A stretch of 62,969 nt of DNA, filler included, from Neolecta irregularis DAH-3 (lineage: Eukaryota): NCBI GenBank assembly GCA_001929475.1. It is 14 parts of 14 records of this genome, joined end to end, with 100 filler letters (N's around TTAATTAATTAA, not from the genome) between each part and the next. Parts side by side here need not be neighbours in the genome. Positions count along the whole stretch, not along the records: positions 2,944 to 14,501 come from LXFE01000439.1; positions 14,602 to 29,681 come from LXFE01000440.1; positions 29,782 to 31,882 come from LXFE01000441.1; positions 31,983 to 33,463 come from LXFE01000442.1; positions 33,564 to 34,699 come from LXFE01003671.1; positions 34,800 to 49,132 come from LXFE01000444.1; positions 49,233 to 50,953 come from LXFE01000445.1; positions 51,054 to 52,340 come from LXFE01003686.1; 6 more parts are not named here. One strand, written 5' to 3'. The position numbers were made by a program, and so were the translations under genes. This document shows positions 5,586-56,832 of this stretch, in pieces (position 1 is the stretch's first letter; each line of letters begins with the position of its first letter). The notes beneath the pieces are model-generated. The model searched no databases and was not told the DNA's origin. It saw only the letters and a list, made by a program, of their open reading frames with translations.

Positions 5586-8500
5586 TTAGATTTCTTTTTG
5601 AAATTGTTGCATTTGAACCATCTCAAAATACTTTCCACGTAAAACAAGCAATTCATTGTGTGTTCCTTGTTCAACGAGTTTTCCTCTCTCCATGAAATAA
5701 ATCACATCGGCGTTTTGAACAGTTGAGAGCCTAAACTTGAGTATTATATATAATTCGAGAATCGTACCGGTGAGCTATAGCAATAGTTGTGCGTCCTTTC
5801 GCTGCTGTCTCGAGAGCTTGATTGATACTAACTTCAGAGGCTGAATCCAACGCGCTTGTGGCTTCATCAAGTAATAAAATCATCGGTTTCCGAAGCAGTG
5901 CACGAGCGATGACGATGCGTTGTTTCTGGCCTCCACTCATCAGGTTTCCTTTGTAACCACATATAGTCTCATAACCTTGCGGAAGCGATTCAATGAATTC
6001 GTGTATGTTGGCATCCTTACATGCGGCTATAACTTCATCGTCAGTGACTTCGCGATTTATGCCAATTGTAACGTTGAACCTGACAGAACCTTCAAGTAAG
6101 ACCCAGAAGAAGATAATTGAACCTTGATAAAGAGTTGGTTCTTGCGAGACAAGAGAAATATGTGATCTGTAGTTCTCAAGTTCCACCTCTTTTATATTTA
6201 CTTCGTCAACAGCTACAATACCAGAAAGTGGATCGTAGAATCTTTCAATAAGGCTGATTACTGTCGATTTCCCACAACCTGATTGACCAACCAATGCAAC
6301 AAACTCGCCTGGCTTAACGTCAAGGCTGAAACCTCTTAAGATTGAAATATCAGGTCTGCTAGGATACTGAAAGCACACGTCTTTTAGAGATATTGCCCCA
6401 CTTTTAACAAGAGGCCTCCTGTTTCCAGTATTGGTGCCAATGAGCGACGGATTATCTAACAAACGGAAAATATTTGAGGCTGATGTGACTGCTCTGTTGA
6501 TATCTGGCAATAAACTGGCCATGTGCCCGGCAGCTCGAGCTCCAAAAACAATGGCTATTAATGAAATGTAAAACTATTACTTAGTCAAAACGTGAACAAA
6601 CTTACATCGGTAAGTCCAACTTGACCTCGTCGAATTAATGTCGCACCCCACCAGAATGCAAGCGCATTGCACAAGAATAGGGAACTTTGCGAGCAGGCAT
6701 AGAAAATTGAACTCTTTATATAAGCATTAACCAAGGATCTTGATGGACTCGAAAGACTCTGCGAATACTCTTTCAGTAGCGGGATTTCCCAAGTAAGGCT
6801 TTGTACTGTTCGAATGTTTGCAGCCGCTTCACACGCAAGCCTTGCAGATTTCTGATAAGCCTTTTGAACCGAAGTCCGAAAAGTTTTCAGCACGTTGATT
6901 CTAAAATAACCCGCCGATACGAGGACCAAAATTGTACTCATGACAAGTAAAGCAAGCTTCCAGGCGACAACTAATGATAAAATAAGACCGCTAGAAATTT
7001 GGAAGACAATAATGATAATAGTGTCAAGAGGTAAGTAACATTAAGATCATAATGGGACATACGAAGAATGCTACCAGTCAATCCTTTCAAACTGGCCGCG
7101 TCAGTAGCAAGAATACTTGTTAGAATGCCGCTATCATTTTCATCTCGGTCAAAAAACTCAATATCTGAATGAACAAGCTTACTGAAAACCCGTTCACGGA
7201 CACGAAGAGTTATTTTTTCAGCACAATACTCAAAGATAAATCCAACTAGAAAATAGCAAAGAAATGCTATTACAGCAACAATTAACCAAAGAATTGCAAG
7301 AAAATTGGCCCGGTCTAGAAGCTGCCGTGTTTCTGATGCTCCATGCGATAGAACTTCGATGAAGTGAGCAAGGATCTGAGCCTGTGCAATGATAAGATTT
7401 CCACAGACAGCGGTAGCAATAAAACCGATAGCAAGTAAGAACTTTTCGGGCTTGTTGAAACACATAATTCGATAAAAGAGGTGGAATGCTGAATACTGTC
7501 TGTCTAAATTTCCGGGTTGCACACATGATTGGGCATTTGAAGCGATGGTTTTCTTCATGGAACTCCCTTTAAAACAAGCCGCCATAACATCTTTAATATT
7601 ATTTGGATCATCAGTTCCTCCTATCTGGTCAAGTTGAGCGCGCAATCTCTGAGCTTCGACAAGTTTCCAATATTGGTCCTTTCTATTCATGAGCTCAATA
7701 TGAGTCCCTTGCTCAACAATTCTGCCAGCTGATATGACAATAATACAATCTGCATTCTTGATTGTGGAGAGACGATGAGCAATAACTATCGTTGTACGTC
7801 TCTTTGCTGCCCGATCCAAAGCATCTTGGACAATCCCTTCGGACGGTGTATCCAACTCGCTAGTGGCTTCATCCAGTAGTAACACCTTCGGACGAGAAAC
7901 AATGGCTCTAGCAATTGCAATTCGTTGTTTCTGGCCTCCTGATAATAGAATTCCTCGTTCACCGACTTGAGTTTCGTATCCTTTAGGTAGACTTCGGATA
8001 AACTCATCAGCATTGGCCTCCTCACAAGCATCGTGAACCAATTGTCGCCGAATCTGGACGCTTGCGTTCTCGTATTTACATCCAATTAAACCTCGGCATA
8101 TGTTCTCGAATATTGTGGTAGAGAAGAGACTGGGTTCTTGAGAGACCAGAGAAATCTGCTGACGAAACCATTTGAGGTTGAGACACTTTATATCATGACC
8201 ATCAAATAAGATTCGCCCTTGGTACTGATCATAAAAGCGTTCAACAAGGTTGAAAACTGTGCTCTTTCCGCTACCGCTGGCTCCAACCAATGCAGTTATT
8301 CTTCCAGCCGGGATCTTCAAACTGAAATTATCCAAAACAGTAATGTTCGGTCGTGCTGGATAACTGAAGCTGATGTTCTGAAATTCAATTTTCCCATGAG
8401 CTTTAGGCAACGTTTTGCCCACATTGTCGAGGGGTTTGCTAGCGTTTTGGTCGATGACTTCAAATATCCTTTTTCCTGCTGCCGTGGCAGACGAAATTGC

Positions 8501-9753
8501 TGAAATACTCGGTGTGATCTGGCCTAAAGACATGGATGCAAGATTGACAGCATAAAAGACATTGAAGATTATGCCGGCTGAAATTTCTCCTCTGACAAGC
8601 ATATGAGCTCCATACCAAAATGCAAGTGCCTATTGATGTAAGTAGTCGACCCGGATTCAAGAATATTTACGTATCCTGAGTATATAACAAGCCAGGTGAC
8701 AGCCATGAGGAATCCGAGAGCAATCGACTTCTTCTTGCCCTCATCAAAGGCAAGTGCAAGATGAGTATTGAAAATTGCAGAAAGCTCTTTCTGCATACCA
8801 AAAGCTTGAACAGATCGAATATTGGCAAACGCTTCTTCTGCCAATGCTCCCCCGGCGGAATAATGAGCTAGTGCGACTCTAGTGCACTTGCCGAGAACCT
8901 TTCCGGTCCACCTCATTCCTACAGATAGCAAAGGTATAATGTAAATCGATATAATAGCGAGCTTCCAGTTCTTGACGAAGGCAATAATGAGAGCACTGAT
9001 GAATGTGGCTAAGGATGTAATAACGATGACAACCTTTTCTGAAATTCCTTCTTGGATAAGAGTGGCATCGCTGGTCTCTAGTTGAATTCTTGTTAAAAGA
9101 GATTGTACCCTGTTATTCGTGTAGTAATTTCTCCGGCACTCACTGTATCAAAGTAAGCAATATCTTGTTGTATAATTGCCTGCAGATAATTCTTTCGAAT
9201 TTTCTTAGTTATCCGATCACCGATGAACATCCAAGAAAATGTAGCGATCATTGTAGAAAGAAAAATAATAACAGCCTTGATGTTAACAGAAAAGTCATAT
9301 CGGAGCTTTACGATATATACGAAGTATAAAATTGTGTGATTGACATTGGTATGGAATCTATCAGCATCGTGTTGACCTGACTTGAAAAACTGTACTGGTC
9401 AATGCGAGAAAATATACGGTCTTGATACATTCGTGAAAAATATAGTGAGTTTACCAAGTACAATAGAAAAGAGGGGTAATGAAAACCCGGCTTCATAAAT
9501 TAGCCATATGTTTGCTTTTGGCCTTCTCTGTACCAATGCTTGCCATGATGAGTCCGAGACACATCAAAGCAAGGTCTGCTCTTGTTGCATAACGATATAA
9601 TTTCAAATAGACAAAGTCATTGATCCTTCTATTCGATCGGCTTAGAGTTTGATTGCATCCTTTGGGTAACACCGAGGCCACTCGTTCCTCTGGAGATTCT
9701 TTTAGATCCACAACATTGTGGCTTGGTAATGGGCATTTCTGTGCGGTCTCCAT
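5586..9753 (-). CDS. Full-size ABCB/MDR (P-glycoprotein, Pmd1-like) exporter, about 10 exons
   Basis: Two NBDs ([34 protein letters not shown]) and two TMDs; introns hand-spliced; stop at 5586-5588. Confidence 0.95.
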
Positions 9754-55720: not shown

Positions 55721-56067
55721 NNNNNNNNNNNNNNNNNNNNNNNNNNNNNNNNNNNNNNNNNNNNTTAATTAATTAANNNNNNNNNNNNNNNNNNNNNNNN
55801 NNNNNNNNNNNNNNNNNNNNACTCACTTACTCACTTACTCACTTCTATTCACACTAAAAATCAATCATTCATGATAAGGACCAATATGCTAGTATGCTGT
55901 TAATTATATGCTCCGACTTTGCGTGCGTAAATTAAAGAAAAATCTGGTGACAAAGGATGTGCCGTGAAACAAACAAAAATAAACGTGAGGACCGGTAGAT
56001 GGAGGGTTATTCGAAACAAAGGTATCCACCCCAAAACTCCGAAATCGCCATCAAAACTCAATGTGCA

Positions 56068-56832
56068 CTAGACAATAACACACCGTTTGCTCCTTGTAAT
56101 GCGAGGCGTCGGAGACAGGACGGCGCTAGTAGATAAATAGTGATTAACAAGAAAAGTACCGAATCGCTTCGTCAAAGACATTCTTCAGACCCTTTTGAGT
56201 GAGCGCCGAGCATTCCATATACCTACGGTCAGCAGCGCCCACAACGACTCGCACCTAAACGCGTTGATATCTTTGGCCATCGCGAGTCCCTGCTGATAAG
56301 TGATTGGTGCACTGCGCTTCTGCTGCAGCTTCTCAAGCGTTTCCTTGTCCTCGCGTAAATCCAATTTGGTGCCCACAAGGATGATTGGCGTACATGGGCC
56401 GTGGTGTTTTAGCTCGAGGTTCCACTATAGTCCTAAGGACCCGTATGCACGGGCGAGTACCTTTGACTTTGCGTTTTCAAAAGACGACGGGTTAACGAGG
56501 GAGAAGCAAATGAGGAAACAGTCTGTCTGCGGGTACGACAGCGGTCTCAGGCGATCATAATCTTCCTGGCCAGCTGTGTCCCAGAGGCCGAGGTTTATTG
56601 GCTTGCCGTCGACCATGACGTTGGCAGAGTAGTTGTCAAAGCTCTCTTGTGTCAACTGGCGGGAGGCTGGGGGAGAATAGGGGTATGTACACAGTGGGGA
56701 TGTATTCGCCGGGAAAGGCATTCGTCGTGTAGCTGATCAAAAGACAAGTCTTGCCGACAGCACTGGCAGGTGAGCATGGGTGGCGGGTGCACAATACCCA
56801 TCACCGACTACGACGCACTTGATCGAGTGCAT
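56068..56832 (-). CDS. RAC1: Rac GTPase, 6 exons
   Basis: [73 protein letters not shown]. Confidence 0.95.

Follow-up and report, generated by a model that had tools for sequence, protein, structure and literature searches.

We examined the spliceosomal introns in a 62,969-nucleotide stretch of nuclear DNA (hereafter the window, joints included) from the ascomycete Neolecta irregularis (Taphrinomycotina). The 83 introns curated in 19 genes are probably ordinary U2-type spliceosomal introns in an extreme compact form, in which about 10% start with GC and about 3% finish with TG or GG (together NG) in place of AG. By their terminal dinucleotides they comprise 72 GT-AG, eight GC-AG, two GT-GG and one GT-TG intron, and all curated coding sequences are open. 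The GT-TG intron, located in an ABC transporter gene, is exactly excised in a contig from a sequencing run that resembles complementary DNA (cDNA). An original prediction, made by hand-splicing about 80 introns in 18 genes, had described ultra-short introns with degenerate GT donors, frequent GC donors and some non-AG acceptors; that description of introns and splice sites is confirmed, and its interpretation, that splice sites are set largely by branch distance and intron length, is partly supported.

Intron length falls within 31-49 nucleotides (nt) in 81 of the 83 introns and within 31-42 nt in 70, the range that had been given for most introns in the original prediction, with a median of 38 nt; two longer introns of 157 and 177 nt are unverified. 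All donors begin with G, with an overall consensus of G-T/C-A-T/A-G-T. Among the 75 GT donors a GTA(T/A)G(T) consensus is clear and A occupies +3 in 58, so that the donor is not free, even though the weak forms cited earlier as evidence of degeneracy (GTTTTT, GTGCTG and GTTTCC) are all present as a minority. The acceptor is AG in 80 of the 83 introns, and all three exceptions retain the final G. A yTnAy motif, taken as the predicted branch point, was found in 73 introns, and the branch adenosine is followed by 6 nt in six of them, 7 nt in 14 and 8 nt in 25 (45 of 73 at 6-8 nt, mode 8). Measured to predicted branch points in the same way, the NG acceptors lie at 7 nt (TG), 8 nt (GG, P450 paralogue 2) and, with the strict motif, 23 nt (GG, ABC transporter).

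The window consists of 14 small contigs and 13 spacers of the form N44-TTAATTAATTAA-N44, the middle of which is a 12-base six-frame stop linker. Genes were called with a purpose-written Viterbi finder that combined codon log-odds, weight matrices for donor, branch and acceptor, and an explicit term for intron length; non-canonical ends were permitted at a penalty, and training was iterative on the window itself. Each gene was then curated in turn with the aid of retrieved homologues (for the ABC, P450 and MATE genes), the public models P0001, P0121 and P0148 mapped back onto the DNA, Pfam profile coordinates, two of the tandem P450 paralogues aligned as DNA, and three-frame reading. Besides the proteins in Table 1, the curated products include a mitochondrial carrier of 301 amino acids (aa), three P450s of 493, 475 and 510 aa, and a partial MATE transporter of 355 aa; the Rac-type GTPase has 192 aa. 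A control based on the dinucleotides that join open reading frames (ORFs) gave 17 GT versus 12 AA, a background that was too high, and was dropped, as were open-frame scans, which were too noisy. No transfer RNA genes and no Rfam families, including small nuclear RNA (snRNA) genes, were found in the window.

The non-AG acceptor observed in spliced form belongs to a pmd1-like ABC transporter gene. Its long exon is 100% identical to P0001, annotated as 'Leptomycin B resistance protein pmd1 [Neolecta irregularis DAH-3]', and the curated protein is colinear with five fungal homologues across all eight junctions. Two sequencing runs, X1 (DNA) and X2, were compared with the block 2944-14501, which contains no GC introns. 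Run X2 is labelled 'DNA?', a guess, and behaves like cDNA, as its contigs skip introns. Record 10 of X2 (2906 nt, depth ~32) aligns to 6606-7024, 7063-8628 and 8670-9070 without mismatches and without a break in the record coordinates, joining 7063 to 7024 and thereby removing the 7025-7062 TG intron exactly. The junction cannot slide, as the bases at 7025 and 7063 differ, as do those at 7024 and 7062, and the 7024/7063 junction has no direct repeat by which a template switch might be explained. All five fungal homologues are gapless across the junction. The intron is retained unchanged in the X1 DNA contig of record 5 (6910-9254), and this contig and that of record 6 (9250-11583) show no differences and no gaps relative to the window. 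The original prediction had named GT-AG-only junctions or assembly errors as the outcomes to be checked for; here the X2 junction lacks an AG and the base is the same in X1 DNA. Two GT-AG introns are also skipped in X2: 8629-8669 in record 10 and 12093-12128 in record 13, which aligns to 11924-12092 and 12129-12479 and whose intron ends, CT..AC on the plus strand, correspond to GT..AG on the minus strand. All three skipped introns agree with the curated models.

Both GG acceptors were placed by frame and homology. In the ABC gene, the exons flanking the intron with donor 9417 share one frame according to the high-scoring segment pairs with homologues. From this donor the AG-ending lengths of 23, 28, 37 and 41 nt all break the frame, and there is no in-frame GT for the AG at 9377; the acceptor is assigned to 9376 because frame and homology require a 42-nt intron. 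The second GG acceptor (44406) lies in P450 paralogue 2, where the intron has its homologue in the GT-AG intron 48535-48503 of paralogue 1 and contains an in-frame stop. Removing it leaves an intact 475-aa ORF with the I-helix and haem-binding motifs kept, and the ratio of non-synonymous to synonymous substitution rates (dN/dS) against paralogue 1 is 0.43, so paralogue 2 does not look like a dead gene. With the TG acceptor at 7025 these make three TG or GG acceptors, against the four that had been predicted; a fourth was not found.

The three P450 genes stand in tandem within 11 kb (38146-48879, minus strand). Paralogues 1 and 2 are 70% identical in protein sequence, all ten intron positions of paralogue 1 are common to both, and their first introns are almost identical.

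Eight GC donors are retained as candidates, in line with the at least eight predicted earlier: four are fixed by colinearity with homologues or paralogues (38880, 32905, 32345 and 48086), 18914 follows from ORF logic, 30642 and 31224 are probable, and 30205 is ambiguous. In P450 paralogue 3, the AGxxT motif of the I-helix is restored only when 38880-38842 and 38815-38778 are both removed, and the resulting register matches two paralogues, P0122 and P0124. In paralogue 1, the frame is colinear with paralogue 2, P0121 and P0122 only under the 48086-48046 placement, and the donor of paralogue 2 at the homologous site is GT (43989). Neither GC intron of the MATE transporter has a GT alternative in frame. 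The 32905-32871 junction is gapless against seven aligned homologues from other organisms; the eighth aligned sequence, P0125, is the public model of a Neolecta MATE paralogue and omits the micro-exon before this intron. The 32345-32311 junction is colinear with those homologues that reach it, and P0125 has a 2-residue gap there.

For the DUF2985 membrane-protein gene, the ORFs on either side of 18914-18875 do not share a frame; no GT is available at an in-frame offset, and the AG is the only one; the exon upstream of 18914 matches DUF2985, and no homologue spans the junction. The TPR-repeat gene holds the remaining three candidates. P0148 reads across 30642-30612 in another frame for about 50 residues; in place of the 31224 donor it has a 49-nt GTTTTT...GGGAG intron that lacks a branch motif at the usual distance, and at 30205 it uses an in-frame 50-nt GTCTCT...AG alternative. 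A homologue search with the TPR exon brought up its own public model and, beyond that, a single weak match, and Pfam did not discriminate between the two candidate frames of this gene.

Table 1 Introns, genes and joints of the window referred to in the text; lengths in nt for introns and aa for proteins
Feature	Position	Strand	Length	Ends and motifs	Remarks
ABC (pmd1-like) transporter gene	5586-9753	-	1286 aa	start ATG 9753	curated; 8 introns
ABC transporter, GT-TG intron	7025-7062	-	38 nt	GTATGT...CTCTTG; branch-like ACTTACC, branch A 7 nt from 3' end	spliced in X2 record 10
ABC transporter, GT-AG intron	8630-8670	-	41 nt		spliced in X2 record 10 (8628 joined to 8670; 1-nt slide)
ABC transporter, GT-GG intron	9376-9417	-	42 nt	GTATAT...TCAGG	acceptor 1 nt beyond an AG
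P450 paralogue 2, GT-GG intron	44406-44444	-	39 nt	GTTCGT...TTTTCGG; GTTGATT, branch A 8 nt from end
P450 paralogue 3, GC-AG intron	38842-38880	-	39 nt	GCAAGA...	fixed by colinearity
P450 paralogue 1, GC-AG intron	48046-48086	-	41 nt	GCATTA...	fixed by colinearity
MATE transporter, GC-AG intron	32871-32905	-	35 nt	GCATGA...	length not a multiple of 3
MATE transporter, GC-AG intron	32311-32345	-	35 nt	GCAAGT...	length not a multiple of 3
DUF2985 membrane-protein gene, GC-AG intron	18875-18914	-	40 nt	GCATAT...	required by ORF logic
TPR-repeat gene, GC-AG intron	30612-30642	-	31 nt	GCAAGA...; ACTAATC, branch A 6 nt from end	probable; typical length
TPR-repeat gene, GC-AG intron	31194-31224	-	31 nt	GCATGT...; branch motif 6 nt from end	probable; typical length
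TPR-repeat gene, GC-AG intron	30174-30205	-	32 nt	GCACGT...	ambiguous
P450 paralogue 1, GT-AG intron	47929-47964	-	36 nt	weak donor GTTTCC	paralogue alignment and colinearity
P450 paralogue 1, GT-AG intron	48503-48535	-	33 nt	weak donor GTGCTG	paralogue alignment; in-frame stop inside
UreG-like gene, GT-AG intron	28682-28720	+	39 nt	weak donor GTTTTT
Small gene (12516-12082), GT-AG intron	12093-12128	-	36 nt		spliced in X2; joint 12092>12129, depth 992
Rac/Rho-type GTPase gene	56126-56832	-	192 aa	ATG 56832	5 GT-AG introns (35, 49, 36, 32, 34 nt); open ORF
Spacers	2844-2943, 14502-14601, 29682-29781 and 10 further places				features not to be read across joints

The GC donors are strong at their remaining positions. 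All eight have A at +3 and six have G at +5; the two bases occur together in six of eight GC donors versus 22 of 75 GT donors (Fisher P = 0.016). The yTnAy motif lies 6-8 nt from the end in seven of the eight GC introns, the strict pattern being absent in 48086-48046. In a control that gave every non-GT second base the same probability of 0.01, the finder returned 81 introns with nine GC-AG, two GA-AG and no other non-GT donor type; curation exposed both of the GA calls and one of the GC calls as artefacts. The excerpted text of PMC7072748 gives 98.7% GT-AG in fungal annotations. Against a background of 1.3%, eight GC donors in 83 introns correspond to a binomial P of 1.4e-5, and the strict count of five in 83 to P = 0.005.

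The public gene models differ from the curated ones at these introns. P0001 (5586-9753), P0121 (38149-40179) and P0148 (29782-31881), all on the minus strand, depart at GC-AG or NG-ending introns and use GT-AG introns wherever mapped. Homologues show that the public model is wrong in two of the three, with a lost N-terminus, deleted transmembrane segments or a frameshifted insertion. P0001 bypasses the TG intron by means of a 146-nt GT-AG intron, which deletes 36 conserved residues of a transmembrane segment; it starts at a false ATG inside the exon next to the 9417 intron, losing about 97 N-terminal residues, and translates the in-frame GT-AG intron 9311-9276 (36 nt), which adds 12 residues. 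P0121 has a 20-nt GT-AG intron, shorter than every other intron here, reads through the next and carries a 19-aa insertion. In the third, P0148, a probable GC-AG intron is read as coding in a different frame, as described above. The Neolecta annotation thus appears to carry a systematic, correctable error at GC-AG and NG-ending introns.

Could all true introns be GT-AG, with the odd boundaries misplaced by modelling or hand-splicing? Four GC calls of our own finder (26618, 43128, 24151 and 28067) were false, three of the eight GC candidates have workable in-frame GT-AG alternatives, and the public models are GT-AG wherever mapped. Set against this, the cDNA-like contig excises exactly a GT...TG intron with no sliding, a GT-AG-only ABC model costs a 36-aa deletion, a 12-aa insertion and the N-terminus, the same restriction in the P450 destroys the I-helix, and the MATE introns, colinear with homologues, offer no GT in frame; we regard such misplacement as very unlikely. 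Errors of assembly or sequencing, or allelic variants, at the splice-site bases are extremely improbable. The draft is fragmented into small contigs and reads were compared for one block, where the independent X1 contigs over 6910-9254 and 9250-11583 agree perfectly with the window; errors would moreover need to strike specifically +2 in eight introns and -2 in three, and the Neolecta genome paper, in its excerpted text, reports 199-fold coverage. Decay, in which splice sites lately mutated in genes that are dying, or transcripts that are spliced poorly, are mistaken for a property of the system, draws on the scarcity of non-AG acceptors (three of 83) and on P450 paralogue 2, in which 1 nt is inserted near the start, by comparison with paralogue 1, and no obvious membrane anchor is present. 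We consider it improbable: the affected genes all yield full ORFs once spliced, paralogue 2 keeps its motifs and a dN/dS below one half, the ABC transcript was assembled in spliced form at depth ~32, and the GC donors lie in conserved transporter and P450 genes. A further alternative, put forward in the original prediction, an altered spliceosome in which the loss or substitution of U1 snRNA, the U2AF small subunit, Prp8, Prp18 or Slu7 relaxes proofreading of both splice sites, would account for 11 non-GT-AG introns in 83 versus about 1.3% in fungal annotations (PMC7072748, excerpted text). That branch and 3' end lie so close together would also suit it. It seems unlikely all the same, since AG ends 80 introns, every donor starts with G and the consensus is strong at both sites; the GC donors, which act like classical GC-AG donors with a compensating consensus, need no changed machinery.

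Several points weigh against reading these as compact U2-type introns with about 10% GC donors and about 3% NG acceptors. The 83 introns come from 63 kb and may be unrepresentative of the genome. Among the non-canonical introns only the TG intron has RNA support, and no GC donor was seen in RNA, the one block compared having no GC intron. Because of the finder's false GC calls, rates taken from uncurated GC counts are too high. At 9376 the GG may instead reflect a CG-AG pair of the same intron length, displaced by one base, and its strict branch motif is 23 nt upstream, with only a degenerate TTCAAG at 7 nt. Paralogue 2 of the P450s lacks a clear N-terminal anchor, so its N-terminus is doubtful and its first intron uncertain. 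Choice of the 3' site by distance is, finally, inferred from positions.

Under the compact U2-type reading, short introns would be recognised as a whole unit of about 31-46 nt (intron definition), and GC donors would be tolerated thanks to good pairing of the remaining donor positions with U1 and U6. The 3' cut would fall at the first suitable site reached at a set, short spacing past the branch adenosine, with the last G essential and A at -2 only strongly preferred. In structures of the spliceosome at exon ligation, the last G of the intron pairs with the first G, and A(-2) contacts the branch adenosine; A(-2) would therefore be the more dispensable of the two. Budding yeast genetics shows that Slu7 and Prp18 are dispensable when the branch is very near the 3' site, a condition that the introns of Neolecta resemble. 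The idea that splice sites are set by branch distance and length fits the ultra-short, uniform introns, the clustering of branch adenosines and the position of the TG and the P450 GG; it fits less well with the near-universal AG, the invariant last G and the clear GT-donor consensus, which indicate that sequence matters much. It is conceivable, though on balance doubtful, that the Neolecta spliceosome places the 3' cut by a distance of ~7-8 nt from the branch adenosine; the final G alone would be strictly required, with AG a strong preference and GC accepted in about one in ten introns.

Classical U2-type GC-AG introns carry a compensating strong consensus at the other donor positions. Those of Neolecta are alike in their GC donor, AG acceptor, normal branch motif and stronger remaining donor, and in the GT found in the homologous intron of a paralogue; judged from sequence, they belong to the classical GC-AG class by every feature tested. 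They differ in being just 31-41 nt long and several-fold to ten-fold more frequent (8/83, or 5/83 strictly), where the excerpted text of PMC7072748 gives a GC-AG share of no more than about 1% for model organisms and for fungal annotations. In the same excerpts, Oikopleura dioica and Eurytemora affinis have many non-canonical donors, with GA-AG exceeding GC-AG, and the non-AG acceptors of Neolecta have no counterpart there (PMC7072748). Neolecta resembles these two in its compact genome or short introns and in a raised share of non-GT donors overlooked by standard gene finders, and is unlike them in having no GA donor among its 83 introns after curation.

Short introns with the branch near the 3' site are also known in hemiascomycetes (Yarrowia) and in relatives within Taphrinomycotina (Pneumocystis, S. 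pombe). Neolecta shares with these fungi the short introns, strong branch motif and short distance from branch to 3' site; we know of no report in them of about 10% GC-AG introns or of RNA-supported TG acceptors, and RNA-supported non-AG acceptors are, to our knowledge, rare everywhere. Minor, or U12-type, introns are the usual home of non-GT-AG ends. The U12 donor box RTATCCTT was found in none of the 83 entries of our list of donor hexamers, where the nearest form is GTATCT (three times), the U12 branch box being outside that scan; the non-AG ends of Neolecta are TG and GG, not AC, and its odd introns are not of the minor class. One intron without a canonical 3' acceptor has been described in Saitoella complicata, in a single manual model, according to the excerpted text of PMC6292966. 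A literature search returned no paper treating Neolecta splice sites; 'intron' and 'splic' are both absent from the main text of the genome paper, whose supplement, which may hold intron statistics, was outside the search.

Among the other curated genes, the UreG-like gene has five GT-AG introns and an open 243-aa ORF; the name is our own reading of the sequence, not the result of a family search. In the Rac/Rho-type gene, Pfam Ras matches on two ORFs abut at the junction (profile positions 92|93), and three-frame reading agrees. A number of finder calls were rejected during curation. The GC intron 26618-26586 gave way to an adjacent GT-AG intron across which Pfam RPN13_C positions 69|70 abut, and the GC at 24151 and GA at 24049 lie inside an intact single-exon repeat ORF. 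Calls at 28067 (GC) and 27803 (CT) belong to genes scoring <=3.5. In the P450 genes, the true donor for the GC call at 43128 is GTAAGT at 43124 and that for the GA call at 43994 is the GT at 43989; the GT-AT intron 44469-44425 was superseded by 44444-44406, and the intron 38170-38139 lies beyond the annotated stop. Homologues of the MATE transporter favour 32918 over the intron 32957-32927. The introns 19645-19413 (233 nt), 55199-55156 and 55154-55122 are unsupported, and an early-round GG acceptor (54645-54677) was unsupported in later rounds.

Several further features of the window were recorded. A single-exon, secreted-looking protein at 23859-24875 (plus strand) contains about 20 tandem Gly-Ser-Asp-Gly-Ser-His-Ser units, with all six frames open, and misled the finder. 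Two paralogous small secreted-looking proteins of 142 and 147 aa are encoded 2 kb apart on the plus strand (15223-15690 and 17504-17982), each interrupted by a single intron that is placed identically behind the signal peptide; the 3' ends of the two introns are similar. The exon 55200-55718 (minus strand) encodes an MA3 domain according to Pfam and resembles the splicing factor CWC22, a name that again comes from our own reading and not from a search; its 3' part was not modelled and overlaps a Pob3-like gene on the opposite strand. An intronless ORF of 422 residues at 49683-50951 (minus strand), with a hAT-family dimerisation domain, encodes a transposase, fills its small contig and runs off the end. 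Contig ends at 31850-31882, 55821-55850, 57060-57030, 14602-14630 and 49133-49100 carry short tandem repeats (8-mer and 10-mer units) or GGGC-type G/C-rich runs, which are the likely cause of the assembly breaks there; the repeat at 31881 was taken as coding (NQSISQSV units) by the public model and by the finder alike. Summed X1 contig depth reached ~1,300-18,000, with many variant contigs, at 2944-5259, 11436-12207, 13366-13751 and 14138-14501, compared with ~480 elsewhere, and these stretches are probably dispersed repeats. The deepest-covered part in X2 is 11822-12593.

Neolecta holds a key place in work on how complex multicellularity arose in Ascomycota and on the reconstruction of intron history, and its public protein set feeds phylogenomics and analyses of intron gain and loss. 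One such study used 4202 Neolecta introns in 1211 alignments (PMC7940399, excerpted text). Should the rates found in the window hold genome-wide, a great many GC-AG and NG-ending introns would lie hidden, and a sizeable share of the public Neolecta proteome, together with the studies of intron evolution built on it, would be wrong at those places. For splicing biology the attraction of Neolecta lies in introns of 38 nt, a GC-donor share of about 10% and a TG acceptor backed by RNA; without culturable relatives but sequenced, it may offer a natural system for how far branch distance alone sets the 3' splice site.

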